Of a DNA stretch of 39,381 nucleotides, positions 65 to 36,313 are shown in pieces (positions within the stretch are counted from its first letter, which is position 1; every line of letters begins with the position of its first letter). Source of the stretch: an uncultured bacterium (lineage in GTDB: Bacteria > CSSED10-310 > CAZUFC01); the NCBI GenBank assembly GCA_964619725.1, contig CAZUFC010000082.1, positions 1-39,381 on the forward strand, read 5' to 3'. The notes under the pieces were generated by a model that had not been told where the DNA came from, did no database searches, and was given only the letters and a program-made list of their open reading frames with translations. The position numbers and the translations under genes are program-made.

Positions 65-208
65 GGCATTGATCAAAAAGGAGCCTTTAGAGCTTACAAT
101 TATTCCGAATTTTCCCATTTCGTTTCGATTGCGATTACGATTGCGATACCGATTACTGAAACAAATTGTCAAAAATTTTCAAAAAGTGTAACCAGGTTTG
201 ATCAGTCC
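65..208 (+). repeat. Dispersed MITE/REP-like element, type 1, copy 1 (5 hexamer units)
   Basis: Begins GGCATTGATCAAAAA and ends GTGTAACCAGGTTTGATCAGTCC. Internal CGATTG-CGATTA-CGATTG-CGATAC-CGATTA tract followed by CTGAAACAAA. Aligns by eye with copies at 10235, 11989, 30601 and 36146. Confidence 0.88.
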
Positions 209-318
209 ATTTTTCACAAATAAAACTTTCTGTCCGCGTTCATAAGGAAAATTACTTGCAATGAATCAGGGCGTGATGTTCTAATAAAAACAGCACAATG
301 AAGGAGTAAAATTTTAAG

Positions 319-3300
319 ATGAGGGGAAACGAGCTGATAATTTCGACATCATTCCGGGAATTAGAAATAGCATTAATGGAAAAATTGAAAGCAGAGAAAC
401 AGGAAGCTCCATTTTTGCGGCAATTAGTCGTTACGCCGACGGTTATGTTGCGTCGTTATTTACTGCAGAGGATTCCCGAAGTTACAGAGACGACTTTTTT
501 GAATCTGGACTTGATGACGTTTAACGGATTCATAAGAGAAGCTGCCAAACAATCGGAAATACGGGAAATGGTAGGAGATTCCGACCTGGAGCTATGGTTG
601 GTGAGCGACATCATCGAGCGTTTGACTGATTTTGCGGCGACCAGGAGTGATTTGCCGGAGTATTGGAATGCCTGGCGGGAGTATAGCAGATCGGATGAAC
701 CGGTTTATGAGGCAATGATGGATTTGATCAATGCGGGAATGGACGAGGAACTGACGGACCTGTTTATTGAGGAAGCCGATGAGTTTTGTAATTCGCTCAG
801 CAAGCCCGCAATCAATCGCTGGAAACGACTGTTGTTTTTCATGAAGATATGGTGGGGCGAACGCAAGCGTCTGGGTTTTTACATGAGGCACGATCTTGAG
901 CGTGAGTTAGGATCGAATTTACTGCTCCATGATGAAAATTATAATGCCGGTTACTCCTGTCACTTTTACGGATTCACTACCATTTCGGGTCTTTCCCGGG
1001 AATTACTGAAAAAATTTTTACAAACGGACGATTGTTCCTGCATTTATTTACTCGACGAGTTAAAAAACCGGCATCAGGACTTCAAGGTTACGGGACGAAT
1101 GGCGGATGAGACCGTCAAACCGTATGTCGTCAACATAAGGACCTTTTCTCATCCAAAACAAGAGCCGGACTGCACGGTAATCGACGCTTATAATGTCGAA
1201 GGTGAAGTAAGGGAAGCAGCGAGGATACTAAGAAAGAAACTGGACGGTGAGAGAAGCGCCGCATTCCTTTCCCGCACAGCTATTTCAGCAAGAAAGATCG
1301 AAGAATATCTTGACTATATTCGAAGGATATTTCCTGAATACGGCATACCTTATTCTGCTGACCGTTCAACGCCGGCTTCAGTACATCCCATATTCCGAAC
1401 GGCGCTTCGTTTTCTTGAATGCCTGGATAATGACTTTCCGCGATCCATATTTTCAGACCTGCTGATCTCAGGCTCGATCCACGTGCCGCCCGGCCTGCAG
1501 GATAATCTTGAACGGCTTGAACTGATGACACGCCAGATGGGAATCATATCCGGAGACGACTGGCGCATTCTCCTTAATCGCAATTTTTTAATAAAAGGTT
1601 ATGAACTGAACCTGAAGATTTCTGATGCCGGAGAGGCGGTAGACGAAAATGGTGAGGAAACGGCTGAGACCGATCCTCAATTTTACATCAAAAGGGATGA
1701 CCGGGGACGAATTTCAGCAGCCGAGATATTCGAATTCGGAGAATGGATTAACAGCATAAGAGACAAGTCGATGAAGGAATGGCCGAGTGAAGCCGGCTGG
1801 ACTCAACATGCTGATCATTTTCTTTATATTCTGAACATTCTTCTGAACTATACGCAGGAAGAGACAAGTTCTACCGAACGGAATTCATTGCTGGATATAA
1901 TCGAACGGCTCAAAACCCGGGACCGTTATGAACTTCCCGTTTCCCGAAAGCAGTTCCTGGAAACGCTTAAACGCCTGATTAAAAAAAGCCGTATTACTAA
2001 AACCGTGAATAGGGGCGGCATCAGAATCCTCAGCGCAGAAAACGCTTGCGGAATGACGTTTGACCTTCTTTTCGTGCTGGGACTTTCGCGCAATAAATTC
2101 CCTCAAAAGAATCTGGAATCTCCCATTCTTCCCGACGATATACGCAAAAGATTACGGGCAGGACCTCTGGCATACGTACCGGTAAAAATGGAAGAATACG
2201 AATATGATCGGCTTTTGTTTCGTATGTTGAAAGATTCAGCCGTTGAACATTTATACCTCTCCTATGCCCGCGCGGACGATGAGGGAAAACCTCTCAGCCC
2301 TTCCCTGTATCTTCAACGTTATGTTCAGGATCGCAATAGTCCTGTCGAAAAAATCAGCATCAACAGAAACACAAAAAAACGTTTGAAGGAAGAAGCAGCG
2401 GAATACGGAGATACATCCATACTTGTCCCTTCTGATTATTTTTTATTCGCCGGATTAACGGCCGAACCGCCGATTGAAGATGAAGCTGCCCTTAAATTAC
2501 GGTATAAAACTGATAATCCTCAAGCTTTACTGAGAAACGCATTCTACGCGGCTCGTAAAATTGATGAAATCGAAGAATTGAACGAATTCGATATTTTCGT
2601 AAGGAAAACAGGTTCACTAAAAGAACTGTCGGCAGAACTTCTGGACTCGGATTTTTACGCCACTTCATTAGAGATGCTTTCCCGTTGCCCCCATCAGTTC
2701 TTCCTCACCCGGGCGCTTAACCTGGTCGACTATGACGAACCGGAACTCTGGAAACTTCCCCCCGTGGACGAAGGCAGCCTGGTTCACGTTATCCTGGAAG
2801 AATTTTTTGAAAATTTAACCTCATCAGCGGGATTCCCCACGGCAAAAAAGCCCCTCTTTGATAAAGAACAGTTAAATGCTTTGCATGACATCTGTGAAGA
2901 AAGATTCAGCAATCATGAAATATATAATCATATAGGTTTGGCCGGATTATGGGACTTCGACAAACGAAGGATAAAAGAATACCTGACGACCTTCGTCGAA
3001 GGGGATCTGCGAAGATTGGAAGAAACAGACTACAAACCTGAAAATTTCGAATTCCCCATAAAACGTCGTCTCGTATTAAACAACGATCAGAAGATTAATC
3101 TAGCCGCTAAAGTAGACCGCAAGGATGTTCGTAAAGACTTCGACGACGTAGTTTTTATCGATTACAAAACCGGAAAAAGATTCCCGAACCTGACAAACCA
3201 GTTTTTCCATGGATTGAAACTCCAGATTCCGCTTTATCTCCTCATCTCCCAAGAACCGCATGAGCAAGGCTTACCGGACGCTGATGAACCCGACGACATA

Positions 3301-3693
3301 AAACAGGAACGACTTTCGGAACAACCTTCAGAAATCAGCGCCGCTTATTTTTACGTCCAGCGCCCGGAAGAAAGCCTGGATCAAGAAAATTTTTATGATC
3401 TGAATTACGATGAAAAAGGCTATCTCCTTATGCCTCACATTGTGAGACTTCTTCGAGTGCTGGCTCAACTGATCATCGAAGGCAAATTCGTTTTGAGGAC
3501 AGGAGCCCATTGCAGTTATTGCGGAGTCTCTTCAGCCTGCCCCTACAGAGAATTCTCCGCCAAATTCCGGGTACAAAATTCAGACGATTGCCTGGTTAAA
3601 CTTTTCCATGAGCTGGTATCGACGGCAAAAACGAAATACATCAAGAAGAAGAATGAACAAGACGAACTTTACAGGATATGTTTCAATGAATGA
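319..3693 (+). CDS. addB: ATP-dependent helicase/nuclease subunit B (AddB/RexB-like)
   Basis: 1124 aa. Degenerate helicase-like N-terminus. C-terminal PD-(D/E)XK nuclease (KVDRKD...IDYKTG...LQIPLY). Fe-S staple cysteines (SRCP ... CSYCGVSSAC). Overlaps the downstream UvrD-nuclease gene. Confidence 0.88.
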   Translation: MRGNELIISTSFRELEIALMEKLKAEKQEAPFLRQLVVTPTVMLRRYLLQRIPEVTETTFLNLDLMTFNGFIREAAKQSEIREMVGDSDLELWLVSDIIERLTDFAATRSDLPEYWNAWREYSRSDEPVYEAMMDLINAGMDEELTDLFIEEADEFCNSLSKPAINRWKRLLFFMKIWWGERKRLGFYMRHDLERELGSNLLLHDENYNAGYSCHFYGFTTISGLSRELLKKFLQTDDCSCIYLLDELKNRHQDFKVTGRMADETVKPYVVNIRTFSHPKQEPDCTVIDAYNVEGEVREAARILRKKLDGERSAAFLSRTAISARKIEEYLDYIRRIFPEYGIPYSADRSTPASVHPIFRTALRFLECLDNDFPRSIFSDLLISGSIHVPPGLQDNLERLELMTRQMGIISGDDWRILLNRNFLIKGYELNLKISDAGEAVDENGEETAETDPQFYIKRDDRGRISAAEIFEFGEWINSIRDKSMKEWPSEAGWTQHADHFLYILNILLNYTQEETSSTERNSLLDIIERLKTRDRYELPVSRKQFLETLKRLIKKSRITKTVNRGGIRILSAENACGMTFDLLFVLGLSRNKFPQKNLESPILPDDIRKRLRAGPLAYVPVKMEEYEYDRLLFRMLKDSAVEHLYLSYARADDEGKPLSPSLYLQRYVQDRNSPVEKISINRNTKKRLKEEAAEYGDTSILVPSDYFLFAGLTAEPPIEDEAALKLRYKTDNPQALLRNAFYAARKIDEIEELNEFDIFVRKTGSLKELSAELLDSDFYATSLEMLSRCPHQFFLTRALNLVDYDEPELWKLPPVDEGSLVHVILEEFFENLTSSAGFPTAKKPLFDKEQLNALHDICEERFSNHEIYNHIGLAGLWDFDKRRIKEYLTTFVEGDLRRLEETDYKPENFEFPIKRRLVLNNDQKINLAAKVDRKDVRKDFDDVVFIDYKTGKRFPNLTNQFFHGLKLQIPLYLLISQEPHEQGLPDADEPDDIKQERLSEQPSEISAAYFYVQRPEESLDQENFYDLNYDEKGYLLMPHIVRLLRVLAQLIIEGKFVLRTGAHCSYCGVSSACPYREFSAKFRVQNSDDCLVKLFHELVSTAKTKYIKKKNEQDELYRICFNE

Positions 3694-6600
3694 CAAAAAA
3701 TTGGAAGATCAGGACAACAGAATTCGGGCGATGACAGAATTCAACCAAAATCTGGTAGTAATAGCCGGCGCCGGCACAGGTAAAACCTCATTGCTGATTG
3801 GCCGCCTGCTTCACTGGTTGCTGGGCGAAGCCTGGCGCAGAACGAATACTACAGGTCCGGAAGCGGCCAGAGAAATCATCAGCTCTGTCGCCGCAGTAAC
3901 ATTTACGGAAAAAGCGGCCGCAGAAATAAGCGAACGATTGACCAGGGTCCTGACTGAACTGGTTAGTCCTGCAATTCCCGTCTCTGCTTCCAATACTGAT
4001 AAGTTTTACTCTCAGGTCATGGATTCCGTCACGAACCGATATAATCTGGATGCGATAAGTATCCGCAAACGAGCCCTTTTGCTGCTGGAATTCATAGATC
4101 GTATCGAAATCTCCACCATACACGGATTCTGCGCCGCTATTCTTAGAAACTTTACGGATGAAGCGGGTCTTAATCCGGGTTTTACTATTGATGAAGATGA
4201 AAACGACCGTAAACTGCTGTTCGACAGAGAATGGGAAAAGTTCGCCAAATCCGAATTCGCAAGTAACGAAACGACAGCTCATTCCTGGGAAACGCTGCTT
4301 AGAACCGGCAACCTGAATGATCTCAAGGATTTTGTTTATCTATTGTTGATGAATGATATCTTTATCAATCCCAAAGACGATAAAGAATTGCAGCTCCTCA
4401 CGGGCGATCCGGCGGTCATCAAAAACCAACTCTCCCAGGAGCTTGAAAAACTTATTGCTCAACTCAATCTTCTGGCCGAATCGTGCAAAAGAGTCAAGAC
4501 GATAAAAACGGCTCTTGAAACTCTCTATGCTGTATCGGCAGCATTGAAAAACCCTGAATTTTTGAAAAAAACCGATGAATTAAACAATGACGATTCGATT
4601 ATAAATTTTTTAAAGTCTAAGGCAGCAAACATACAAGAACTCCCGGACAAAAAGACCGTTCAAGAAAACAGCGATGAGGAGTTCCTGGAAGAATTAAAGA
4701 AAACGACTCAAAAAGCGGATATCTTGTTTTCCCGGATTCTATATTTAATCCGGTACAAGAAAAACCAAGAATTCTGGGAAGCATTTTTCCGTATATTTTA
4801 TCCTTTTCAGAAAAAAGTTGCTGAAAGGTGGCGCAGTGAAGGCTTGATCGGATTCCGGGACCTTTTGATAAAAACACGCGGCTTACTTCGGAAAAGCGTC
4901 TCCGTGCGAAAAGTTTTAAAATCAAGATTCCGTCAGGTACTTGTCGACGAAAGCCAGGATACGGACCCCATTCAATCGGAAATAATCACATATTTAAGCG
5001 AATTTTCGGGAGACTTGGCGGAAAGATCATCCGACGTAAGGTTGGAACCCGGCAAATTATTCGTAGTCGGCGACCCGAAGCAATCGATATACGGTTTTCG
5101 ACACGCAGACCTCGGATCATTCGAGTGGATGCAGAAAAAAATAGACCCTTCGTCGAACAACATCCTTAAACTTCAAACCAATTTTCGGTCTACGGATAAA
5201 ATAATAAATACCGTAAACGCGATACATGATCTGAGGATGAAAAAGCAAAGCGGCTATCAACCGGAGTATATTCCTATCTGGAGTTGCGGGGAGGAAAGCG
5301 GAGAAGCGAGTGAGCTGTGGCTCATTGTTCAGCGAAACGAGCCGGACGAAATAAATTTTAAAATAAACAAAACCGATTCATACGATCAGGAAGCACGCTC
5401 TATTTCTCAATACATCAAAAACGAGGTAGACAAAAATGCCGGTATTAAATACGGCGATTTTGCTGTCCTGCTCAGAGCTATGACGCGAGCAGGCGGTTTT
5501 ATGGAAGCGTTTGAAAACGAAGATATTCCCTTCGTGGTTGAAGGCGACAAGGAATTCTACCAGAAACAGGAAATAACGGATTGCATCAATTTGCTCTGGG
5601 TTCTGCTCCATCCCCTGGATGTCGTGCCTTTCGCCGGATTATTGCGTTCATCGCTCATTGGAGTCCCCCTGCACGGCATGCTCTACCTCTCGAAAATTAA
5701 TTTCCTCACCCAGTGGTGGAAACCCCGGAAGCAGGATTACTTCCGACAAAAATTAGCCGAATCCGGCACGTTGTGGAAAAAAGCGACTTCCGTCGCTTCC
5801 GAATCGCTTATCGAGTTGAGACGTTTATTTCACTCCATGCCGGCTCATGAGTGGATCGATGAAATCATCAAACGGTTTCCCCTGCCGGAAATATACTCCG
5901 GCAGATACCTGGGAGATCGCAGAGCCGCCAATGTTCTCAAGTTCATAAGCTCAGCGCGAAAAGCAGCCAGAAACAGCGATGCCGGATTATTTGCCTGGCT
6001 TCGTGATCAGCGGCTGTCTCACCGTCAAACCAAAGAAGAAGGCGAAGCGCTGCTGGCCGATGAGAATCTTGATGCCGTGCGCATACTCACCATCCACAAA
6101 TCAAAAGGTTTGCAGTTCCCTGTGGTCCTTATACCCCATCTGCATTCCGGGCATGGAGCGCCGGGGCGAACCCCCTTTGAAATAAAATATCGCTGGCATC
6201 CGGACAGAACGAATTATTCGCTCAGATTCAACGAATTCGAAACCATCGACTTCATTAACCATAAAAAACACGAAATGCTTCGGGAAGAAACAGAATCAAT
6301 TCGTCTTCACTACGTTGCGTGCACCAGAGCCGAAAAGAAACTGATATTGAGCGGGACAGCGCCTTCAGGCTTACCGAAAAAACAGCCGCTGCCGCCCTTC
6401 CCGCCCGTCAACAATGTCCTGGAACTTGTCGGAGACGAAATCCCTCAAAATAATAAAAGGGAAGCAGCGGAATCGCTGAATTTAAAATTTCCCTTTTTAC
6501 GCATTAAATTGATCCCTTTTGAAGAAAAACAGAGAATAAAAAAAGAACGAAAACGCTCCGTTCCCCATCAGGCTCCTTTGAAAAAATACGTGGAATATTG

Positions 6601-7276
6601 GGAAAAAAATTATGCTTTTTATGAAAAAGCCAGTCAGAGCTCCGTAATCGTCAGCCCTTCACAACTCCAGGATCGCGAACGCGAACTCAAAGACCGGAAA
6701 ATGGAAGCCGAAGAAGAATTCGTCGCTTCAGTTTATTCCCGGACGAGCCGTCAGGAAGCTATGCTCATAGGAACCTTATGCCACGAAGTGATGGAAAAAT
6801 TGGACATGACGAATCCTGAAGCCGATCTGGAACGTATTCTTAAAGAAGAAGAACCTTCGCTGTCGGAAAGCGCTGATATCGCTGCCGCAGAACGGATTAT
6901 ATCCGAATCACGCGACATTATGCTTAATTTTTTTCAAACGGAATGCTTCAAGATGCTGCAAAAAATTGATATTACGGGTAAAGAAATACCTTTCCTCATG
7001 CCCCTGCAAAATGAAACGGAAACACGAAGCTCATTTCATGATCCCACAGCCTGTCACGGCATAATCGATTTATTATACAAAAAAAAGGACCGTTACTTTA
7101 TCGCAGATTATAAAACCGACAAAATCTCAGGCCCCGGTAACCTGGAATCACTCAAACAAAAGTACGCTTACCAGAAAAAATATTACGCTCAGGCCGTAAA
7201 AAATGCCCTCTCGCTGCCTTACTCTCCAGTCTTTCAACTGATATTCCTGAGAACCGGAGACATTGTGGAATTGTAA
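3686..7276 (+). CDS. addA: ATP-dependent helicase/nuclease subunit A (AddA, UvrD-type helicase with C-terminal nuclease)
   Basis: Motifs AGAGTGKT, VTFTEKAAAE, STIHGFC, VDESQD, VGDPKQSIYGFR, TIHKSKGLQF and YVACTRA. C-terminal GIIDLL...ADYKT nuclease. Start chosen at ATG 3686 (MNDKK), overlapping the addB end by 8 bp; the ORF track extends to 3608. Confidence 0.92.
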   Translation: MNDKKLEDQDNRIRAMTEFNQNLVVIAGAGTGKTSLLIGRLLHWLLGEAWRRTNTTGPEAAREIISSVAAVTFTEKAAAEISERLTRVLTELVSPAIPVSASNTDKFYSQVMDSVTNRYNLDAISIRKRALLLLEFIDRIEISTIHGFCAAILRNFTDEAGLNPGFTIDEDENDRKLLFDREWEKFAKSEFASNETTAHSWETLLRTGNLNDLKDFVYLLLMNDIFINPKDDKELQLLTGDPAVIKNQLSQELEKLIAQLNLLAESCKRVKTIKTALETLYAVSAALKNPEFLKKTDELNNDDSIINFLKSKAANIQELPDKKTVQENSDEEFLEELKKTTQKADILFSRILYLIRYKKNQEFWEAFFRIFYPFQKKVAERWRSEGLIGFRDLLIKTRGLLRKSVSVRKVLKSRFRQVLVDESQDTDPIQSEIITYLSEFSGDLAERSSDVRLEPGKLFVVGDPKQSIYGFRHADLGSFEWMQKKIDPSSNNILKLQTNFRSTDKIINTVNAIHDLRMKKQSGYQPEYIPIWSCGEESGEASELWLIVQRNEPDEINFKINKTDSYDQEARSISQYIKNEVDKNAGIKYGDFAVLLRAMTRAGGFMEAFENEDIPFVVEGDKEFYQKQEITDCINLLWVLLHPLDVVPFAGLLRSSLIGVPLHGMLYLSKINFLTQWWKPRKQDYFRQKLAESGTLWKKATSVASESLIELRRLFHSMPAHEWIDEIIKRFPLPEIYSGRYLGDRRAANVLKFISSARKAARNSDAGLFAWLRDQRLSHRQTKEEGEALLADENLDAVRILTIHKSKGLQFPVVLIPHLHSGHGAPGRTPFEIKYRWHPDRTNYSLRFNEFETIDFINHKKHEMLREETESIRLHYVACTRAEKKLILSGTAPSGLPKKQPLPPFPPVNNVLELVGDEIPQNNKREAAESLNLKFPFLRIKLIPFEEKQRIKKERKRSVPHQAPLKKYVEYWEKNYAFYEKASQSSVIVSPSQLQDRERELKDRKMEAEEEFVASVYSRTSRQEAMLIGTLCHEVMEKLDMTNPEADLERILKEEEPSLSESADIAAAERIISESRDIMLNFFQTECFKMLQKIDITGKEIPFLMPLQNETETRSSFHDPTACHGIIDLLYKKKDRYFIADYKTDKISGPGNLESLKQKYAYQKKYYAQAVKNALSLPYSPVFQLIFLRTGDIVEL

Positions 7277-7314
7277 AATAGGGAGTCGCCGTTCACGTTC
7301 GACGAATCAAAAAT

Positions 7315-7443
7315 GCGATGATCAAAATCCCCGGGCTTTTGGTATTAATTTTATAGAGCTTCGGCAGCCAGGGTTATAACGGATTATCGCAGATAAGAGA
7401 AAAGAGATTCGCAGCCATTGTAATTCCCCATTTTATCGGTTCC
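7315..7443 (-). repeat. Type 2 dispersed element (shares end motif with type 1, different internal sequence)
   Basis: Minus strand reads GGAACCGATAAAATGGGGAATTACAATGGCTGCGAATCTCTTTTCTCTTATC, similar to 26538 and to 11952/12205. The other end is GCGATGATCAAAA. Boundaries approximate. Confidence 0.55.
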
Positions 7444-7444
7444 C

Positions 7445-7483
7445 AAAAAACTGAAGCGAGTTCCCTTTTCGGAAACTCGCTTC
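7445..7483 (-). terminator. Probable intrinsic terminator of the sigma/anti-sigma/rhodanese/DoxX unit
   Basis: Hairpin GAAGCGAGTT(CC)...(GGA)AACTCGCTTC at 7453-7483, followed on the minus strand by CAGTTTTTT. Lies between convergent genes. Confidence 0.6.
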
Positions 7484-7512
7484 GCATACCATTAACGTGT
7501 TTTGAGGAAATG

Positions 7513-8085
7513 TCAGGAAGGGGAGATATGAAAGGATTGTCTATGTTTTACAGGATATACTGATTTTACAAGAGGTTTTACGGTTAATCTTTCTCCCTTG
7601 AAGAAAAATATAAAACCTCCTATCAGCAAGAAAAAAATGTCCCTGATGAACTCGCACGATGATTTGCCTCGAATGGATTGAGGCGCTGACAGTTCCGTCA
7701 AGTGTGTATCGGCAAAGCGGACAATTTTTGCGCACAGCCCCTCGCCGCTGCCGAAACAACCGCAATCGAAATCAATTCCCCTGACAATATTGATCCCTAT
7801 GGCTGCAGTAAATACCGCCAACATGATCAACAGCATGAAGGTCGCTCCGGATACGAAAATCCCCAATATCAGCAAACCGCCGGCAATTAACTCGAACCAG
7901 GGCAGAACAATGGCTAAAAAATTGACGAAAGCGCCGGGAACCAAATGGTAATTATAAATATCTTCGGCAAACTCGGCGGGATTCGCTATCTTATGAACAG
8001 CGGCATAAATAAACAATCCGCCGAGAAAAATCCTGCACGCTAATTCAATCCATCTCGATCCCAATATGCCTCTTTTCCCGTTCAT
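7513..8085 (-). CDS. DoxX/MauE-family membrane protein
   Basis: Multiple TM helices. RIFLGGLFIYAAVHKI, LPWFELIAG and conserved IDFDCGCFG motifs typical of MauE/DoxX proteins. Confidence 0.82.
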   Translation of the reverse strand: MNGKRGILGSRWIELACRIFLGGLFIYAAVHKIANPAEFAEDIYNYHLVPGAFVNFLAIVLPWFELIAGGLLILGIFVSGATFMLLIMLAVFTAAIGINIVRGIDFDCGCFGSGEGLCAKIVRFADTHLTELSAPQSIRGKSSCEFIRDIFFLLIGGFIFFFKGERLTVKPLVKSVYPVKHRQSFHISPS

Positions 8086-8092
8086 CTTCTCC

Positions 8093-8584
8093 TTATCCCC
8101 TCTCTACAGGTTTTCCAGACTCTTCCCACGCCGGATAGCCGTCTTCAAATATTTTTACCTTCTCATAACCGAACATCCTAAAAATATCCGCAACTGTATG
8201 AGAGTCAGAGCAGCCCGGCCCGGTGCAGTATGTAATGATCGTTTTTTCGGGAGAAATACTATCCATGATATGGAAAAATTTCTCCTCTGATTCCCTTGCA
8301 GGAAAAGAAACAGCCCCCGGAATTCTGCCTTCCTCATACCATTCGATGCTTCTCGCATCTACAAAAACCGCACTCTCATTCCGGAAAAGCCTTAACGCTT
8401 CATCCATTCCGATTATTTCCGTTTCTTCCGCTTTACCGCCAGTTTCCTGTTCCCAGGAACCGACCCAATCTATGCGGGCAGGCGAAACGATGTTGGCCGT
8501 CATCGCCGCAATCAAAGCAAAAACTGATATGATGACTGATTCTTTAACGAATCTCAGTTTCAATAATTTTAAAATCTGCTTCAT
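8093..8584 (-). CDS. Membrane-anchored rhodanese-like domain protein
   Basis: N-terminal hydrophobic segment. FVDAR...GRIPGA, active-site loop YCTGPGC, and EDGYPAW rhodanese signature. Confidence 0.85.
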   Translation of the reverse strand: MKQILKLLKLRFVKESVIISVFALIAAMTANIVSPARIDWVGSWEQETGGKAEETEIIGMDEALRLFRNESAVFVDARSIEWYEEGRIPGAVSFPARESEEKFFHIMDSISPEKTIITYCTGPGCSDSHTVADIFRMFGYEKVKIFEDGYPAWEESGKPVERG

Positions 8585-8648
8585 TCCCTCATCTCCTTAT
8601 CTTTACCTCGTTTCCTGAATTTTCATGCTCTCGGTCTCTTTTAAAACG

Positions 8649-9446
8649 TTAAATACAGGGTTGAAGAGTTTTATTGATCGTTTGAGCCATACTCAATATT
8701 TCATCTTCCTGCAAATCGCTGTGAATACGAAAATGCCTGTCGCCGCAACACCATACGAATACTTTTAGCGACTGCCTGCCCTCCGCAATAAAACACCCGT
8801 CTAGAACCGGCAATGCCGATTTTACGCAGGGACAGGTCAACCCCTCCCCCGCGCCCGAAAAGCACTGATCGAAAATGCATATCTGTCCGTCTTTCTCAAA
8901 AACCTGCCTGAATCCGACATCGCATCCCTCTGAGTGTATTAAATATGAATCCTGACTTACCAGATTACTCAATGCCGCCTCCACCTTGATTAAATCGAAT
9001 TCAAACGGCGCATGCTCTATCTGTTTCACTTCCGGCGTTTTAACTATCTTTGTGGCAGGTCCCGGCGCCCTGAACAAGCCGAATGTCACAAAAATACCCA
9101 TAACCAAGCCCGCAGCCCCGACCAATATCGGCCTTAACATCCTGAAAAACGAAAAATAATAGCTCCAGACCGCCTGGCCCGCTCCGACCCCTTTCCCTCG
9201 CTCGCTCGCAGAAAGTCGCCTGTAGGTCTCTTCAGCAAAATCCGCTTCCGCTTTCACACCAGTCGTCCGTTGATTATAATATTCCTCAAGCGACGCCCGG
9301 TCGCTCCTCAAACGCTCCATATAAATTCGGCAATCCGTACAATCATTTATATGCTCCGTTATTCCGCTCTTATACCCCTCGTTGAGAGCGCCGTTAATAT
9401 AATCCGATGACAGGCGGCGACATTTCCTACAGTTCATGTTCTTCAC
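8649..9446 (-). CDS. Zinc-binding (ZAS/zf-HC2) transmembrane anti-sigma factor
   Basis: N-terminal C..C and HINDCTDC (HxxxCxxC). One TM helix (ILVGAAGLVMGIFVTFGLF). Cys-rich C-terminal domain. Overlaps the end of the ECF sigma gene. Start 9446 or 9437. Confidence 0.8.
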   Translation of the reverse strand: MKNMNCRKCRRLSSDYINGALNEGYKSGITEHINDCTDCRIYMERLRSDRASLEEYYNQRTTGVKAEADFAEETYRRLSASERGKGVGAGQAVWSYYFSFFRMLRPILVGAAGLVMGIFVTFGLFRAPGPATKIVKTPEVKQIEHAPFEFDLIKVEAALSNLVSQDSYLIHSEGCDVGFRQVFEKDGQICIFDQCFSGAGEGLTCPCVKSALPVLDGCFIAEGRQSLKVFVWCCGDRHFRIHSDLQEDEILSMAQTINKTLQPCI

Positions 9447-9987
9447 CCCTTTCCAGGAGTTTTCTCAGTTTCTTGTGAGCATAATGGAGTCGAGAGCGGA
9501 CAGTCCCTATTCCTGTGCCGGTTATCCATGCTATTTTTTCGTAGCTCATCCGCTCATAATATCTTAAAATCAATACCCTTCTGTGCTTTTCAGACAACCG
9601 GTCAACCGCCGCACGCAGCCTTTCCTTGCGAATCGCCTCCTCATCAACACCCAACCTGCCTTCCGGTTCACAGGCTTCACCTGTCCCTGCCGCGTTAGAC
9701 TTCTTCCGCTCACGGTATCTCCTGAATAAAACTTCTCTCCTCTTATAGTCCTTGAACTTGTTGTAAAGTATCCTGTACAACCAGGTGAAAAGGTCCGATC
9801 TGCCCTCGAATCTATCCAGCGATCCTAAAGCCTTTAGAAAAGTCTCCTGCGTCAAATCTTCCGCTAACGCCCTGTCTCGGCACAATAACAGCGCCGAACG
9901 CAACAGCCTCTCCTGATTGCTCTCTACAAATTCTACCACCGCCCCATGCTCGCGCTTCTTTAACTTCTCTAAAAATCTCTCATCCAT
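9427..9987 (-). CDS. ECF-type RNA polymerase sigma factor
   Basis: Region 2 AEDLTQETFLKA...FTWLYRI. Region 4 LSEKHRRVLILRYYERMSYEKIA...GTVRSRLHYA. Start chosen at ATG 9987 preceded by GGTGGAG; the ORF track extends to 10161. Confidence 0.9.
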   Translation of the reverse strand: MDERFLEKLKKREHGAVVEFVESNQERLLRSALLLCRDRALAEDLTQETFLKALGSLDRFEGRSDLFTWLYRILYNKFKDYKRREVLFRRYRERKKSNAAGTGEACEPEGRLGVDEEAIRKERLRAAVDRLSEKHRRVLILRYYERMSYEKIAWITGTGIGTVRSRLHYAHKKLRKLLERGEEHEL

Positions 9988-10184
9988 ATCTCCACCGGCC
10001 CCTCGAGTCCTTTCAACCGCTTCCAATAATCCGACTGCCTCTAACAGCTTCTCAAAGGCAATACTCAACCCTGAACCGCTAAAAAAGTCGGAACCGGTAA
10101 AAGTCTTGTCCCTCGCTCCCATTTTGTCAATACATATGTTCAATGAAGAAACGCAAGCCATCCGACCCTCCTGCCCATCATTCG

Positions 10185-10211
10185 TTCGACGAACGCCCCT
10201 GGAGAAAGTTC
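10185..10211 (-). promoter_or_regulatory. Candidate ECF-sigma promoter (GAACTT-N16-TCGAA)
   Basis: Minus strand GAACTT-TCTCCAGGGGCGTTCG-TCGAA resembles the RpoE-type consensus GAACTT-N16-TCTRA. Upstream of the ECF sigma gene. Confidence 0.5.
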
Positions 10212-10234
10212 AAATTTTTTTCATACTTTTTTGA

Positions 10235-10412
10235 GGACTGATCAAAACACGGTTACACTCCTTTCAAAACTTTTGAAAGTTTGTTTCAGTAATCGATATC
10301 GGGGTCGGTATCGGTATCGATGTCGGGTTCGCAATCGAAATCGCAATCGCAACAAAATGAGCAGATATTCTGTAGGATTGTAACCTCAAAAGACGCATTT
10401 TTAATCAATACC
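10235..10412 (-). repeat. Type 1 dispersed element, copy 2 (10 hexamer units)
   Basis: GGACTGATCAAAACACGGTTACAC ... (NNNTCG)10 ... TTGTAACCTCAAAAGACGCATTTTTAATCAATACC. Reverse-complement homolog of copies 1 and 5. Confidence 0.88.
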
Positions 10413-10457
10413 CTTTTTTGATTAAATATTCATGAATTCGTCATTATTGCCTGGTCT

Positions 10458-10487
10458 TAACTAGACTAGTTTAAACTATTCTAGTTA
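10458..10487. promoter_or_regulatory. 30-bp near-perfect palindrome, probable operator
   Basis: TAACTAGACTAGTTT|AAACTATTCTAGTTA (one mismatched pair), 4 bp upstream of a TTGACA -35. Confidence 0.65.
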
Positions 10488-10491
10488 TGAT

Positions 10492-10520
10492 TTGACATTT
10501 ACTGGGTTTTCAATTAACTT
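10492..10520 (+). promoter_or_regulatory. Sigma70-type promoter of the AAA ATPase gene
   Basis: TTGACA-N17-TAACTT, then purine-rich AGGGAGAG before ATG 10544. Confidence 0.6.
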
Positions 10521-10543
10521 AAAAATTAGGGAGAGAAGAAAAA

Positions 10544-11929: not shown

Positions 11930-11951
11930 GACCGGGATTCGGCGCTTTACA

Positions 11952-12260
11952 GGCTGATCAAAAAGGGATGACGATTTTTGGGAATCGGGGACTGATCAAA
12001 TCGGGATTACGCTTCTCCCAAAATTTATGACAGTTTCTTTCAGTAAGCGGTATCGGGGTCGGTATCAGGATCGAGGTCAGTATCAGTATCAGTAATCGGT
12101 ATCGGGGTCGGTATCTCAATCGGGTTCGCAATCGCAATCGAAACAAAAAAAGATGGGAAAATCTGTCCAATTGTAACCTCAAAAGACTTATTTTTGATAA
12201 ATGCTGCGAATCACTCCTTCTCTTATCCCTGATGGTCCGAAATATGCGGTTGCGAGGTCT
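11952..12260. repeat. Type 2 element apparently interrupted by type 1 copy 3
   Basis: GGCTGATCAAAAAGGGATGACGATTTT precedes the type 1 copy and TGCGAATCACTCCTTCTCTTATCC follows it. Joined, they match 26538 (GGACTGATTAAATGGGATTACAATTTTCACGAATCGCTTCTTCTCTTATCC). Confidence 0.55.
11989..12205 (-). repeat. Type 1 dispersed element, copy 3 (~16 hexamer units)
   Basis: GGACTGATCAAATCGGGATTAC ... long GTATCG/GGGTCG/CAATCG tract ... TTGTAACCTCAAAAGACTTATTTTTGATAAATGC. Confidence 0.88.
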
Positions 12261-12307
12261 TTAAAATTGTTTTCAAAAATCATGATATTTTGTTCATCGC
12301 CCAAAGT

Positions 12308-12937
12308 TCAACGGTTATTCCATTTACGCATTATTTCATTGACTTCTTCGTCCGACACATCATGCCAATGCCGGTAAACCTGTGCGACTGCCTGAAAGAA
12401 GGGCGGCGTGTACAGTACCACGACTTCATCGACCAGCATTCCTATTTCATCGGCTACACGCTTGCTGGTGACGGGAGCTCCGACGACTATTTTACCGGGA
12501 TTCATGTTTTTACAAGTTTCTATAGCGGCTCGTACAGTCGAACCCATGGCGATCCCGTCATCAACAAGGATGACCGTTTTTCCTTCCATTTCCGGTAAAG
12601 GCTCGCCGTTTCTCAGTTCCTGAATGCGACGCTTGATCTCCTGCTTCTGATTTTCAATTATTTCTTTTATTAATCTATCCGGAATCCATGAGGATGCATC
12701 CTGAAAGATATACCGGCCTTCGCCTTCCGACAGCGCGCCGAAGCCGGCCTCCGGATTGTAAGGAAAAGGCAGTTTTCGCGCTACGATCAACGAAAAATCC
12801 GCATTAAGATAACGGGCAACTTCATAACCGATCTCAGCGCAGCCCCGTGGAACGCCCAAAACCAGGCAATCTTTATCTTTAAATTTCTCTAAGGCATAAG
12901 CCAGTTGAACGCCTGCGTCTTTTCTGTCCTCAAACAT
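12308..12937 (-). CDS. Type I phosphoribosyltransferase family protein
   Basis: FEDRKDAG start, GVPRG, PRPP-binding motif VILVDDGIAMGST. Confidence 0.85.
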   Translation of the reverse strand: MFEDRKDAGVQLAYALEKFKDKDCLVLGVPRGCAEIGYEVARYLNADFSLIVARKLPFPYNPEAGFGALSEGEGRYIFQDASSWIPDRLIKEIIENQKQEIKRRIQELRNGEPLPEMEGKTVILVDDGIAMGSTVRAAIETCKNMNPGKIVVGAPVTSKRVADEIGMLVDEVVVLYTPPFFQAVAQVYRHWHDVSDEEVNEIMRKWNNR

Positions 12938-23645: not shown

Positions 23646-23667
23646 TTTCCTGAACGCCGTGCAGAAA

Positions 23668-26475: not shown

Positions 26476-26537
26476 AACGAACGCTGCCTGACTATATCGA
26501 ACATCCAGGATAAAACTGTTTCTCTCTTTAAAAACCC

Positions 26538-26612
26538 GGACTGATTAAATGGGATTACAATTTTCACGAATCGCTTCTTCTCTTATCCAGGATGCTCCCT
26601 GTTATCCGCTGT
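26538..26612 (+). repeat. Type 2 element (partial/degenerate)
   Basis: GGACTGATTAAATGGGATTACAATTTTCACGAATCGCTTCTTCTCTTATCC. The first 21 nt match the type 1 terminal GGACTGATCAAATCGGGATTAC. Confidence 0.6.
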
Positions 26613-29904: not shown

Positions 29905-30631
29905 AAGCATCCGGAAAGGGGTCAAAGCCCGTCGGAAACTATTGCGAGAAAAGGACCGACTTCATCCATCCAACCTCAACCAGCCGTCATCAAGCATCCG
30001 GAACGGGGTCAGAGCCCTTCGGAAAATGCCGACCCTCTATCTTCTTTCTTATTCGTGAGATTCGCGTAATTCGTGGTTGAATTCAGAGAGGTTGCCTTCA
30101 CCATCGTCATGCCGGTTTACTCCGACCTACAATATAAAAAAATCGGCACTGATCAAAAATACACCTTGGAGTTTAAAGCATCCGGAAAGGGGTCAGAGCC
30201 CGTCGGAAAACGCCGACTCTCATATCTTCTTTCTTATTCGTGAGATTCGCGTAATTCGTGGTTGAATTCAGAAAGGTTGCCTTCACCATCGTCATGCCGG
30301 TTCACTCCGACCTACAATATAAAAAAATCGGCATTGATCAAAAATACGCCTTGGAGTTTAAAGCATCCGGAAAGGGGTCAGAGCCCGTCGGAAACTATTG
30401 CGAGAAAAGGACCGACTTCATCCATCCAACCTCAACCAGCCGGCATCAAGCATCCGGAACGGGGTCAGAGCCCTTCGGAAAACGCCGACTCTCATATCTT
30501 CTTTCTTATTCGTGAGATTCGCGTAATTCTTGGTTGAATTCAGAGAGGTTGCCTTCACCATCGTCATGCCGGTTTACTTCGACCTACAATATAAAAAATC
30601 GGCATTGATCAAAAATACGCCTTGGAGTTTA
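29905..30631 (+). repeat. Mosaic tandem array R-A-R-B-R-B-R-A-R-B
   Basis: R (34 bp) at 29905, 29992, 30176, 30361, 30448. A (53 bp) at 29939 and 30395. B (150-151 bp) at 30026, 30210, 30482. Copies differ by a few SNPs/indels. Confidence 0.93.
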
Positions 30632-30753
30632 GAATTTTACAGAACATCACACCATTTTGTTTCGATTGCGGTACCTGTATTGACCCCGATTTCTGAAATA
30701 AACTGTCAAAATTTTTTAAAGAAGCAGAAGGGTAACCCAGGTTTGATCAGTCG
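30601..30753 (+). repeat. Type 1 dispersed element, copy 4 (~5 degenerate hexamers)
   Basis: GGCATTGATCAAAAATACGCC ... TTTCGATTGCGGTACC ... CTGAAATAAACTGTCAAAA ... GGTAACCCAGGTTTGATCAGTCG. Confidence 0.82.
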
Positions 30754-30771
30754 CTCGAAATATAAAAAAAA

Positions 30772-35412: not shown

Positions 35413-35441
35413 TTTTATGATCGATTTTTTACTGTTTTCTC

Positions 35442-35470
35442 TTGACATGAAGTTTCTTAATAATTATTTT
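35442..35470 (+). promoter_or_regulatory. Sigma70-type promoter for the tRNA pair
   Basis: TTGACA-N17-TATTTT upstream of tRNA-Val. Confidence 0.55.
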
Positions 35471-35520
35471 GAGGAAGCGTTGCAACGCCCCTCGGATTCT
35501 GTTAAACTTCATGGAATCTG

Positions 35521-35592
35521 GGGCGGATAGCTCAGCGGGAGAGCACCGGCCTTACAAGCCGGGGGTCGCAGGTTCAAACCCTGTTCCGCCCA
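35521..35592 (+). tRNA. tRNA-Val(TAC)
   Basis: Acceptor GGGCGGA/TCCGCCC, D arm TAGCTCAGCGGGAGAGC, anticodon arm CCGGC-CTTACAA-GCCGG, T loop GGTTCAAAC. CCA not encoded. Confidence 0.95.
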
Positions 35593-35618
35593 ACAAAAAG
35601 AATACTCAAAGGTTACGC

Positions 35619-35696
35619 GGGGGCGTAGTTCAGCTTGGATAGAACGCCGGCCTGTCACGCCGGAGGTCGCGAGTTCGAGCCTCGTCGTCCCCGCCA
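35619..35696 (+). tRNA. tRNA-Asp(GTC)
   Basis: Acceptor GGGGGCG/CGTCCCC, anticodon arm CCGGC-CTGTCAC-GCCGG, T loop GTTCGAG, ends GCCA. Confidence 0.96.
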
Positions 35697-35797
35697 TTTT
35701 TTTTCTTGAAGTTTTTATAGTCCCAAAAAACCGAAATGAATGACCGAAAGCTCTCCCCAAACAGAATCTTTTCCAAAAAAAGGCAGGGAAAAATAAA

Positions 35798-35998
35798 ATG
35801 TTCGGACTAGGAGTAACAGAACTCCTGATAATTTTAGTAATAGTATTGATCATTTTCGGAGTAGGCAAATTGCCTCAACTGGGATCGGCATTAGGCGAAG
35901 GCTTGAAAAACTTCAAGAAAGCCGTAGGACAGGAAGAAGACGAAGACAAACCAAAGGAACTGAAGGACGAAAATTCATCTGAAGACAACAGAAAATAA
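35798..35998 (+). CDS. tatA: Twin-arginine translocase TatA/E subunit
   Basis: [38 protein letters not shown] with an acidic tail. Confidence 0.93.
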
Positions 35999-36045
35999 CC
36001 CGTCAAGACAAAATCCAAAATCCAGGCCGAAAAAAAAAACAAAAT

Positions 36046-36113
36046 GTCCCTTCCGTCCCTTAGGTCCCTTAAGTCCCTTAGGTCCCTTCGTCCCTTTGTC
36101 CCTTTGTCCCTTC
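36046..36113 (+). repeat. Short tandem repeat (GTCCCTT-N1-2)x8
   Basis: gtcccttcc gtcccttag gtcccttaa gtcccttag gtcccttc gtcccttt gtcccttt gtcccttc. Confidence 0.9.
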
Positions 36114-36145
36114 ATATGTTAGCCCTTTGCCGGCAAAAACAAATC

Positions 36146-36313
36146 GGCATTGATCAAAAATGCGTCTTTTGAGGTTAAAATTCTGCGGAATATCCCATCA
36201 TTTTTTTTTCGATTGCGATTACGATTGCGATTACGATTGCGATACCGACCCCCGATAACTGAAACAAACTGTCGAAAGTTTTGAAAAAAGTGTAACCCCG
36301 GTTTAATCAGTCC
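36146..36313 (+). repeat. Type 1 dispersed element, copy 5 (~8 hexamer units)
   Basis: GGCATTGATCAAAAATGCGTCTTTTGAGGTTA ... (CGATTG/CGATTA)n CGATAC CGACCC ... GTGTAACCCCGGTTTAATCAGTCC. Confidence 0.88.

Follow-up and report, generated by a model that had tools for sequence, protein, structure and literature searches.

The window analysed here, a stretch of 39,381 nucleotides from an uncultured bacterium, contains five copies of an intergenic sequence with palindromic ends and a core of repeated hexamers. What is this sequence, and what has moved it? MITEs arise from insertion sequences by deletion; they are non-coding and retain only the ends to which the transposase binds. In this report, we conclude that the copies in the window form part of a MITE family that was mobilized by a DDE transposase with which it has ends in common, the latter from an unnamed clade near IS256 and ISL3 (probability roughly 0.9). 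Judged against Rfam, Pfam, NCBIfam, the open-access literature and one IS catalogue (not ISfinder), the MITE family is new and the transposase clade uncatalogued.

Copies in the window and their layout

The five copies delineated in an earlier note on this DNA are all present and have the layout described there, but two details required correction. The right end reads ...TTTGATCAGTCCC, one base beyond the end given previously; this last base is C in 155 of the 174 exactly-ended copies of the family. The copies therefore occupy the coordinates listed below. Further, the tract of copy 4 is degenerate, with just 2 uninterrupted units.

65..209, + strand: MITE copy 1, 145 bp; tract of 5 units at ~126-155
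57-64 and 210-217: 8-bp duplication TTTTTCAC of copy 1; flanks 8/8
10234..10412, - strand: MITE copy 2, 179 bp; tract of 10 uninterrupted units at ~10290-10349
10226-10233 and 10413-10420: duplication CAAAAAAG of copy 2, read on the - strand; flanks 8/8
11988..12205, - strand: MITE copy 3, 218 bp; duplication decayed (6/8); tract at ~12046-12140, the longest in the window, ~16 units with interruptions, 8 uninterrupted
26537..26600, + strand: single terminus of a different element type with the MITE's end (GGACTGATTAAATGGGATTACAATTTT…CGCTTCTTCTCTTATCC), no tract
30145..30182, + strand: truncated left arm (GGCACTGATCAAAAATACACCTTGGAGTTTA…), then unrelated sequence; first unit of a tandem duplication
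30330..30367, + strand: second truncated left arm; second unit of the same tandem duplication
30601..30754, + strand: MITE copy 4, 154 bp; altered right end (…CAGTCGC); flanks 4/8
36146..36314, + strand: MITE copy 5, 169 bp; tract of 7 uninterrupted units at ~36210-36251
36138-36145 and 36315-36322: duplication AACAAATC of copy 5; flanks 8/8

A local tandem duplication ends with copy 4. Each copy is bounded by a 13-bp terminal inverted repeat, GG[C/G]A[T/C]TGATCAAA, and each arm carries an inner GGTTACA motif. In 252 of the 299 full copies of the family, 9-11 of the 13 positions agree between the two ends (11/13 in the consensus). Both of the inverted-repeat levels that had been proposed exist, but GGTTACA lies at unequal distances from the two ends, starting at position 28 on the left and, counted from the end, at position 17 on the right. 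When up to 2 mismatches are allowed, a 12-mer of the right end occurs 21 times in the window, as against 4.3 expected and a maximum of 10 in 100 shuffles.

Abundance and genomic context

A profile built from the five window copies had 757 matches in the source genome (9.17 Mb in 344 contigs, 90.9% complete); copy 3 was split into two matches in this search. The matches merge into 695 intervals that total 93.7 kb, or 1.02% of the genome, and lie on 232 of the 344 contigs. Full-length matches number 299, at 116-286 bp with a median of 154, and the arms are ~78% identical in pairwise comparison. The exact 13-mer terminus is found 534 times in the source genome versus 0-7 times in each of 13 other genomes of the phylum, and the same 13-mer read backwards, used as a control, does not occur.

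The intergenic position of the copies is evident from the ORF map of the window and holds genome-wide, where only 2 of the 299 full copies fall inside an ORF-model gene. In the window, three copies had been placed between convergent genes, and copies 3, 4 and 5 do lie there; copy 5 has two tRNA genes on one side and an ORF of the minus strand on the other. The ORFs around copy 2 are divergent, and copy 1 is located where the contig starts. Across the genome, 71 copies occupy convergent, 57 divergent and 115 tandem spacers, compared with 42, 65 and 136 expected from intergenic length, although these counts rest on crude ORF gene models. In the tandem spacers there is no orientation bias: 53 copies point along the gene direction and 62 against it. 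A promoter or terminator role is not supported, no such signal having been found.

Target-site duplications and an empty site

Insertion by a transposase that duplicates its target would leave direct repeats of fixed length, and such repeats are present. They are 8 bp long, AT-rich and conform roughly to nAAAWTTTn. Perfect duplications flank 37 of the 174 exactly-ended copies, among them three of the five in the window (shuffle mean 0.4, maximum 3 in 200 shuffles); duplications matching at 7 or more of 8 positions flank 66 of 174 (shuffle mean 2.6, maximum 8). Lengths of 6, 7, 9 and 10 bp gave no signal. A recognizable duplication is still present in only these 66 copies; most have decayed.

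In one case, and only one, a filled site could be paired with a related empty site. The element at C181:809-1004 has GATGAAGC on both sides, while a related sequence on contig C6, with flanks 90-94% identical to those of the C181 site, has GATGGAGC once and no element.

A DDE transposase with the same terminus

The terminus of the MITE was found downstream of a gene for a DDE transposase of ~500 amino acids. In the source genome this gene is decayed. One copy, on contig C179 (locus L010, ~1300-2885), is broken by stops and frameshifts and ends at GGCACTGATCAAAAATGGCCTTTTAGAGGTAACAAAG on the reverse strand at 2950-2990. A second, on contig C164, is internally deleted and ends as the first does. 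The terminus of the decayed transposase aligns to the left arm of the MITE through both motifs. On the parent, the counterpart of the “left” arm lies downstream of the transposase gene. The earlier note had placed the mobilizer elsewhere in the genome, and a DDE transposase with the MITE's terminus is indeed there, but only as these two decayed copies; no intact transposase of the clade was found in the source genome (90.9% complete, 344 contigs).

Intact relatives of 503 amino acids are 50-55% identical. In other phyla, intact relatives end in TTTGATC[N]GT[C/G]CC at 50 of 75 loci, representing several phyla, and in those 50 the signature is always on the transposase strand, downstream of the gene. 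Intact elements in a Psychromonadaceae MAG measure 1725-1727 bp and terminate in TTTGATCAGTCCC; in this MAG, the 8-bp duplications are perfect at 17 of 22 end-pairs. At locus L048, an element has the two ends GGGACTGATCAAA and TTTGATCGGTCCC, with TTAGGATG on both flanks. The “right” arm of the MITE would correspond to the upstream end of the parent. That correspondence rests on the elements of other phyla, because no upstream end could be found for the decayed parent.

An exhaustive search for the transposase clade retrieved 1393 representative clusters at E<=1e-3, of which 173 reached E<=1e-30; relatives on plasmids are annotated “hypothetical protein”. D142, D196, D217 and E434 are among the columns that do not vary in 46 full-length members. 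The GGCnnTG ends, which we take to be reminiscent of IS1595, had first suggested that family, but PF12762 (DDE_Tnp_IS1595) has no match anywhere in the source genome. Weak HMM matches among the 46 members are to IS256 (33), ISL3 (30) and Transposase_mut (17); of the ISL3 models, NF033550 is matched by 30 and PF01610 by 23, all weakly. At E<=1e-3, ISH6 and ISLre2 are matched by just 1 member each, and ISKra4 is not among the matches listed.

The similarities to IS256 and ISL3 fall short of membership. The clade member P0001 scores 25.2 bits against a curated cut-off of 150 for the IS256 model NF033543 (the best E-value among the 46 is 2.7e-11). For ISL3 it scores 23.3 bits against a cut-off of 180 for NF033550 and 18.4 against 23 for PF01610. 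The 8-bp duplication does fit the 8-9 bp direct repeats of the IS256 family. Mutator-like elements are characterized by a Mutator-like DDE domain and by inverted and direct repeats of 18-39 bp and 8-9 bp, respectively; here the direct repeat is 8 bp and the inverted repeat is 13 bp plus the inner motif, and the similarity of clade members to Transposase_mut and MULE is sub-threshold only. On these sequence comparisons, we assign the transposase to an unnamed clade with distant similarity to IS256 and ISL3, the Mutator-like group. The prokaryotic Mutator-like elements enumerated by Guerillot et al. (2014, PMC3942029) are IS256, ISH6, ISLre2 and ISAzba1/ISMich2/ISKra4, and the termini strings are absent from the listed text of Table S1 of that paper (424 elements).

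The previous proposal of a non-autonomous element of MITE type is thus borne out by the 8-bp duplications, by the filled and empty sites, and by ends held in common with a DDE transposase gene. The elements display the traits by which MITEs are recognized: they are short, lack a transposase gene, and have inverted ends, a duplication of fixed length, many dispersed copies and an empty site. Ends shared with an autonomous element are a further such trait and are likewise present, although an intact two-ended parent was not found in the source genome.

The hexamer tract

The core of the element is an internal CGAYNN hexanucleotide microsatellite in which whole units are gained and lost faster than the arms diverge. 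Uninterrupted runs comprise 1-14 units across the family, with a mode of 5. For 24 copies, the nearest neighbor is at least 97% identical in the arms. The length is equal in 11 of these cases, shifted by 6 bp or a multiple of it in 7, and different by some other amount in 6; shifts of 18 bp at 99.1% arm identity and of 6 bp at 98.2% were seen, for example. The polarity reported for the window copies extends to the whole family: CGATTT/CGATTG come first, followed by CGATAC/CGACCC, and CGATTA is the last unit before CTGAAACAAA.

The tract is absent from the ends of the transposase parent, and it is not confined to the MITE. An alternative, unlikely in our estimation but the most probable of those considered, is that the tract is itself a functional module, such as a series of sites bound by a protein of the host or a cassette that forms a hairpin, kept by host selection, with the MITE a mere vehicle. 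The element would then have captured a type of sequence already present in the bacterial lineage. Same-phase CGAY tracts are indeed enriched in two relatives, G008 (106 pattern matches) and G003 (51), versus 0-7 in most others, and both genomes are devoid of the MITE termini (just 1-2 matches, at chance level). In relatives, ORFs for four-helix bundles of the 23S rRNA IVS type have the tracts at their 3' end or immediately upstream, and one inverted pair of tracts occurs. In the source genome itself, a loose pattern detects 123 tracts of at least 4 units that lie outside family matches, with over 250 bp between them and any terminus; the strict CGAYNN pattern detects 38 away from the family and its termini, of which 27 are intergenic. 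The polarized order of units, kept across copies, also accords with function.

Against this view, the number of units varies between 1 and 14, and the tract of copy 4 has been lost. The copies are not biased in orientation relative to genes (53 versus 62), and a search for promoter or terminator signals yielded none. The association with four-helix bundles fails in the source genome, because it has only 6 such matches, 3 of them above the cut-off. Finally, polarity can come from slippage limited to the middle units.

Folding, coding potential and Y1 transposases

The inverted repeats at two levels also admit a reading, proposed earlier, in which the family is a structured non-coding RNA or a DNA fold-back: the repeats form a long stem, the tract is its loop, and the structure is the functional unit. 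The + strand does fold modestly better than shuffled sequence (mean z -1.37, with 13 of 40 copies below -2), the means over 40 copies being -1.4 and -0.7. However, three folds from the window gave z-scores of +1.0, +1.9 and -0.5, the energy model does not predict the long stem, and an Rfam search of the window matched two tRNAs and nothing else. Because of their unequal distances from the ends, the GGTTACA motifs cannot stack directly on a terminal stem. Nor does either proposed stem covary: double changes number 18 versus 18.5 expected in the terminal repeat and 33 versus 29.3 in GGTTACA, and single changes mostly break the pairs (358 versus 127, and 289 versus 120, respectively). Further, the copies are not oriented relative to transcription. 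We therefore consider this reading very improbable. On this pattern of substitutions, the inverted repeats are candidate binding sites, not stems.

That the element encodes a small peptide is just as improbable. Two candidates were considered, (A/V)LIKNASFEVTI(L/R)QNIPSFCF-(Asp-X)n-DY, whose start would be a TTG within the terminal repeat, and M-RLLRLQFDRISHHFVS-(Ile-Ala/Pro)n…, starting at the ATG at position 15. In 193 of 295 copies, the Asp-X frame, which is closed by a conserved TGA, stays open as far as the left end, and the other two frames do so in 55 and 48; the repeat reads DY/DN/DE in apparently real ORFs of relatives; and the +1 frame has an excess of synonymous changes (z=8.3). Yet with per-site substitution counts fixed, the Asp-X frame is without selection (synonymous z=-0.9, nonsynonymous +0.7, stop +0.2). 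The +1-frame signal is attributed to a few shared high-frequency variants, and the three frames are alike once each variant is capped at 5 counts. The +1-frame ATG has 91 substitutions in 154 copies, and the frame from ATG to stop through the tract is kept in only 95 of 299. Neither start is preceded by a Shine-Dalgarno motif as read from the sequence, and orientation bias is again lacking. A small ORF is thus largely refuted; no frame is maintained.

A REPIN consists of paired hairpins that a Y1 enzyme mobilizes, and the RAYT gene is flanked by the repeats. The present family resembles the REPIN-RAYT system in that its repeats are short, very abundant, intergenic and palindromic, restricted to one lineage, and accompanied by a cognate transposase-like gene in the genome; it differs in its 8-bp duplications, its DDE-type ends and the unflanked state of the Y1 genes. 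Y1 transposition (IS200/IS605, REPINs) is not known to make target duplications. Movement by a Y1 (RAYT/IS200-type) transposase is the least probable reading of all: the genome has 9 Y1_Tnp matches (8 open), one of them, on contig C12, with a full MITE copy ~75 bp downstream and several others with a degenerate terminus-like match within ~400 bp, but none of the nine is bracketed by an inverted pair of termini, target duplications of 8 bp are present, elements with a DDE transposase have these termini as their ends in other phyla, and the window folds lack a strong REP-type hairpin.

Comparable elements and the probable fate of the family

The combination of conserved ends with a variable core has precedents. 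The BOX elements of Streptococcus pneumoniae are modular intergenic repeats with ends boxA and boxC and a variable number of ~45 bp boxB units. The MITE described here likewise has conserved end modules and a variable central module, but its repeated unit is a hexamer. It also has a target duplication and a matching transposase, neither of which is known to be established for BOX. Another likeness is BrickBuilt of Porphyromonas gingivalis, a MITE described by Klein et al. (2015, PMC4596501) in which two small inverted-repeat ends, the “leader” and the “tail”, surround a variable-number tandem-repeat core; it is always intergenic and found in one host lineage. It has a 23-nt minisatellite unit, 19 copies per genome and bidirectional promoter activity, whereas the MITE family here, likened to it by description only, has a 6-nt unit, ~300 full copies, ~700 loci and no promoter signal that we could find.

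For the MITE, the following course of events would fit these observations. The N-terminal helix-turn-helix of the transposase would bind the terminal repeat and GGTTACA in trans. Movement may proceed via an excised circular intermediate, by analogy with Mutator-like prokaryotic transposases, for which PMC3942029 reports one. Once the element is in place, the tract would change in length by replication slippage.

The arms are only ~78% identical, the duplications have mostly decayed and the parent is broken; therefore the family is probably old and no longer moving in the source genome, unless an intact parent escaped assembly. The copies that remain are nearly all intergenic, in excess between convergent genes and without orientation bias, and they may persist where the harm that they do is small.

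Results

Anatomy, number and surroundings of the element

Five full copies of the palindrome-ended element lie in the window:

65-209, + strand: copy 1
10234-10412, - strand: copy 2
11988-12205, - strand: copy 3
30601-30754, + strand: copy 4
36146-36314, + strand: copy 5

Direct reading of all five intervals bore out the layout claimed for them in the earlier note: the left end, GGCATTGATCAAAAA, is followed by a GGTTACA-like inner motif, a T-run, a CGANNN tract, CTGAAACAAA, GTGTAACC and the right end, TTTGATCAGTCC. The right end described there is present but one base short. The true end is …TTTGATCAGTCCC, with C as the last base in 155 of 174 exactly-ended copies, and with this base the terminal inverted repeat becomes GG[C/G]A[T/C]TGATCAAA. 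Of the 13 positions, 11 agree between the consensus ends, and 9-11 agree in 252 of 299 copies. The consensus of the left arm is GGCATTGATCAAAAAtgcgTCTTTTGAGGTTACAATT…TCATTTTGTTT, and that of the right arm is CTGAAACAAActGTCaAAaGTTTTgaAAgAAGtGTAAcCCCgGTTTGATCAGTCCC.

A profile made from the five copies was used to search the genome assembly to which the window belongs (G000; 9,173,508 bp, 344 contigs, 47% G+C, 90.9% completeness, 6.5% contamination); the window makes up the entire contig C82. At a cut-off of E<=1e-3 there were 757 matches: 299 full-length (116-286 bp, median 154), 191 right-end-only, 163 left-end-only and 104 internal. Merged, they form 695 intervals on 232 of the 344 contigs, and these make up 1.02% of the genome (93.7 kb). 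G000 has 534 occurrences of the exact 13-mer terminus, versus 0-7 in each of 13 other genomes of the phylum; a control read backwards has 0. The closest relative of G000 in the genome collection is related at the "same phylum" level only. The arms have a mean pairwise identity of 78%, and 12-14% of their sites deviate from the consensus; the family is therefore old.

Only 2 of the 299 full copies fall inside ORF-model genes, though these models cover 83% of the genome. The spacers that hold full copies are convergent in 71 cases, divergent in 57 and tandem in 115; intergenic length predicts 42, 65 and 136, respectively, a crude expectation in that spacer lengths include the copies and the gene models are rough. 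Copies in tandem spacers are oriented with the genes in 53 cases and against them in 62. Fifty-four full copies adjoin a contig end, and a copy is found no more than 300 bp from 103 of the 688 contig ends. Four DNA runs from one microbial-mat study contain the window sequence, and the contigs from these runs are broken at the copies; in a second sample, one contig spans copy 3 unchanged. The runs listed with this sequence include none of RNA. Neither tract-length variants nor element-free alleles were seen at two loci in the run contigs, which cannot show rare variants.

Other repeats accompany the family. At 30100-30600 of the window, a local tandem duplication of ~185 bp ends at copy 4; at the start of each unit is the element's left arm, truncated, and the unit also holds a GC-rich, hairpin-like segment (…GGGGTCAGAGCCCGTCGGAAAACGCCGACTC…). 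Further short element types have the terminus GGGACTGATCAAA(C/T)…GGTTACA in common and differ in their interiors (e.g. …CGCTTCTTCTCTTATCCGTGAT… or …TTTTCATAAAATATTTGACTGATTGAAA…); 470 of 1227 termini (<=1 mismatch) do not belong to the profiled family. Besides the hexamers there is a second family of simple repeats, TAAGGGACC-like 9-mers (complement GTCCCTTAG/GTCCCTTTG), which is found inside long composite insertions and beside copy 5.

Window 26537-26600, and many others (e.g. C15:81881, C3:61794): short element types with the common terminus
C43:25130-25190, C32:440-500, window ~36100-36115: TAAGGGACC-like 9-mer repeats
Window 35521-35592 and 35619-35693, + strand: two adjacent tRNA genes just upstream of copy 5

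A block of 20,964 bp also occurs twice in G000 at 99.995% identity (C36:23040-44003 and C117:3666-24629). It is most likely assembly or binning redundancy, consistent with the 6.5% contamination estimate.

Evidence of transposition

The earlier note had proposed a search for target-site duplications and empty sites, and both are now in hand. Once the right boundary is corrected, an 8-bp duplication flanks the copies. It is perfect in 37 of 174 copies (200 shuffles: mean 0.4, maximum 3) and matches at >=7 of 8 positions in 66 (shuffles: mean 2.6, maximum 8); lengths of 6, 7, 9 and 10 bp gave no signal at these flanks. The target is AT-rich, approximately nAAAWTTTn, and among the five window copies three are flanked by perfect duplications (TTTTTCAC, CAAAAAAG and AACAAATC). 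Self-comparison of the genome gave one clean pair of a filled and a related empty site. At C181:809-1004, a 196-bp copy has GATGAAGC on either side; the related site on C6 has GATGGAGC once, without the element, in flanks that are 90-94% identical to those on C181.

The search for a mobiliser in G000

G000 is poor in transposases, with single ISL3 and IS66 fragments, one intact DDE_Tnp_1 ORF and one weak Transposase_mut match (on C179). No IS1595 or IS1 transposase match was found in it. Ends of the form GGCnnTG with an 8-bp duplication fit IS1595, and that family was ruled out when PF12762 had no match in the genome. The ISL3 match on C18 is a decayed fragment without the element's termini, the DDE_Tnp_1 ORF on C132 is intact but lacks them, and the IS66 match is a broken fragment. 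Inverted termini paired at 400-9000 bp spacing delimit only nested or composite insertions; clusters of long ORFs adjoining termini are host paralogue families, with no transposase; and no IS-sized repeat from the genome self-comparison is bounded by the termini.

On C179 the matching gene is decayed, ~1.6 kb long and interrupted by stops and frameshifts; it carries an N-terminal helix-turn-helix and the motifs ALDEIF…, KDGDKG…FHAEHR and ESLNSLLRPYL. On the reverse strand, ~100 bp past its stop, stands GGCACTGATCAAAAATGGCCTTTTAGAGGTAACAAAG, which aligns to the left arm of the element across the terminal repeat and the inner motif. A second transposase copy, on C164, is internally deleted, cut on its 5' side by a copy of the element, and has the same end. 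The upstream end of this decayed parent was looked for in G000 and not found. An intact parent in this organism would be ~1.7 kb long and encode a ~500-aa transposase of the clade described below; it would be bounded by GGGACTGATCAAACCGGGGTTACA… upstream and …TGTAACCTC…TTTTTGATCA(A/G)TGCC downstream, with 8-bp duplications. Metagenome contigs scanned with G000's own transposase piece contained only three weak relatives (37-58%, short segments) and no intact close parent.

A transposase clade and its terminus

The transposase pieces of G000 match known families weakly (ISH6, E 7.6e-4; MULE, 0.017), and have intact relatives of 503 aa at 50-55% identity. An exhaustive search for the clade gave 1393 representative clusters with a cut-off of E<=1e-3; at E<=1e-30, 173 remained. 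When 46 full-length members were aligned, D142, D196, D217 and E434 were among the invariant residues; weak matches to IS256, ISL3 and Transposase_mut are found in 33, 30 and 17 of the 46, respectively. The clade transposase works like those of IS256 and ISL3 and lies near them. It scores below the curated thresholds of both (P0001, a member protein, reaches 25 bits versus the 150-bit cut-off of IS256), and the clade is thus filed in neither.

Scanning species-representative genomes with an alignment as query yielded 75 clade loci; the scan with a single transposase protein found nothing. These loci span Gamma-, Alpha- and Deltaproteobacteria, Dehalococcoidia, Anaerolineales, Phycisphaerae, Pirellulaceae, Actinomycetota and others. 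A Psychromonadaceae MAG has ~30 element copies with a common core of 1725-1727 bp, which starts with GGAACCCATCAAACCTGGGTAACAAA and ends in …TTTGATCAGTCCC, identical to the right terminus of the G000 element; perfect 8-bp duplications occur at 17 of 22 end-pairs. In another MAG (locus L048) the ends are GGGACTGATCAAA… and …TTTGATCGGTCCC, with TTAGGATG flanking both sides. Fifty of the 75 loci carry the motif TTTGATCNGTSCC, always on the transposase strand and downstream of the gene.

G004, a 9.2-Mb genome of the same phylum, holds several copies or fragments of a homologue that is only 32% identical (L014, L016, L018, L020, L022 and L024). These six loci had no match to TTTGATCNGTSCC, and neither GGSAYTGATCAAA termini nor copies of the G000 element were found in G004, which may host an element family of its own. 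Distant homologues (23-33% identity) reside on Acaryochloris marina plasmids and one Burkholderia latens plasmid. Among annotated plasmids the relatives are labelled only "hypothetical protein"; the clade goes unrecognised in routine annotation.

The hexamer tract

The tract units are CGAYNN, dominated by CGATAC, CGACCC, CGATTG, CGATTA, CGATCC and CGATTT, in uninterrupted runs of 1-14 units (mode 5). The polarity reported earlier holds: CGATTT/CGATTG open the tract, CGATAC/CGACCC occupy its middle and CGATTA closes it. Copies with near-identical arms differ by whole hexamers (18 bp at 99.1% arm identity, 6 bp at 98.2%). Of the 24 copies whose closest neighbour is >=97% identical in the arms, 11 equal that neighbour in length; the difference is a non-zero multiple of 6 bp in 7 copies and another value in 6. 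The tract behaves as a microsatellite, and we infer that replication slippage lies behind its changes in length. The ends of the parent (C179) have no hexamer tract.

Under a loose pattern of >=4 units, the genome holds 570 tracts versus 3 for the control: 402 within the family, 45 near other termini and 123 elsewhere. With the pattern restricted to strict CGAYNN, 38 tracts are found outside family matches and >250 bp from a terminus, 27 of them intergenic. The same CGAY phase is enriched in relatives (106 pattern matches in G008, 51 in G003, 13 in G006), and G003 and G008 lack the element's termini. Translated, the tracts there give DY/DN repeats and are placed at the 3' end or just upstream of ORFs for four-helix bundles of the 23S rRNA IVS type (example products: …VSMLTRPGEMNHEMREVSEQYGGIENDYDNDN… and MAIGHEKLDVYR…). 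At L100 (G003), two tracts form an inverted pair with a potential hairpin of ~28 bp. A link to this gene as the explanation in G000 was dropped, given only 6 gene matches there. G000 also has a small dispersed repeat, …AATTTCGCCTGAATGGGCGTCAAGTTTAAATT-(CGACAA/CGATCA)n-CGAATGCATTTTTAAA…, of the relatives' tract type and unrelated to the element's termini.

G008 L003, L007; G013 L005; G003 L004, L100-L102: (CGATTA/CGACAA)n tracts by four-helix-bundle ORFs in relatives
C14:61250, C29:5423, C42:17746, C88:20080, C94:12695, C195:2461, C1:3424: dispersed (CGACAA/CGATCA)n repeat sites in G000

These observations bear on the idea that the tract is a lineage-wide module and no by-product of the MITE, captured by the element and amplified ~400-fold. 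The element would then have carried a motif that the host recognises, as an array for protein binding or hairpin formation, through intergenic DNA. We regard this as improbable.

Other readings of the element

The earlier note also offered a structured RNA or fold-back stem, which does not survive. Rfam gave two tRNAs alone in the window. Three window folds had z-scores of +1.0, +1.9 and -0.5. Forty random copies had mean z of -1.37 (+ strand) and -0.71 (- strand), below -2 in 13 and 4 of the 40, respectively; these scores do not exceed what short terminal repeats would give. There is no covariation: double changes number 18 versus 18.5 expected in the terminal repeat and 33 versus 29.3 in GGTTACA, and single changes in either inverted-repeat level mostly break pairing.

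A small gene was likewise rejected, using z-scores computed with per-site substitution counts held fixed. In 193 of 295 copies the Asp-X frame stays open as far as the left end, yet it shows no selection (synonymous z -0.9, stop z +0.2). The synonymous excess in the +1 frame (z 8.3) was traced to a few shared variants; its ATG is hit by 91 substitutions in 154 copies, and the frame is kept in only 95 of 299. Over positions 1-12600 of the window, there were 19 promoter-like sites versus 18.7 expected, with only weak 9-of-12 matches inside copies, and no terminator-like sites within copies.

The REPIN-RAYT alternative fails, as not one of the nine Y1-transposase genes lies between inverted termini. 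The nine matches (IS200/RAYT-like) include eight with open frames, of 209-287 aa, and two of the genes lie within a 2381-bp tandem duplication at 99.9% identity.

C22:68874-73633, C12:95531-96241, C35:6271-7017, and on C27, C5, C1, C198 and C269: Y1-transposase matches

Discussion

In every defining feature that could be tested, the element is a MITE. We describe it as a new MITE family from an apparently uncatalogued transposase clade, the word "uncatalogued" being provisional. In G000 the family is probably a fossil. It accounts for ~1% of a 9-Mb genome, in a phylum of which very little has been sampled (14 species genomes), and partly explains the fragmentation of the assembly.

The element is a clear bacterial case of a MITE with an internal microsatellite. 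In architecture, the nearest precedent is a MITE of P. gingivalis, BrickBuilt, which has a 23-nt minisatellite as its core (PMC4596501). The microsatellite supplies hundreds of potential VNTR loci at once, and could serve strain typing in mat communities.

The parent may represent a previously uncatalogued insertion-sequence family, a sister clade of IS256 and ISL3 with ~1400 representative protein clusters; its terminus, GGSACNGATCAAA, has been kept across at least six bacterial phyla. Strings from the termini matched only unrelated primers in the searchable literature. A 2014 catalogue reports 8-9 bp direct repeats and circular intermediates for prokaryotic Mutator-like elements as a group, and the termini are absent from its Table S1 as available (PMC3942029). 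A conserved terminus and an 8-bp duplication are now tied to a large clade that annotation pipelines leave "hypothetical", and annotators have a signature for it: a ~500-aa DDE protein, then TTTGATCNGTSCC ~120-140 bp downstream.
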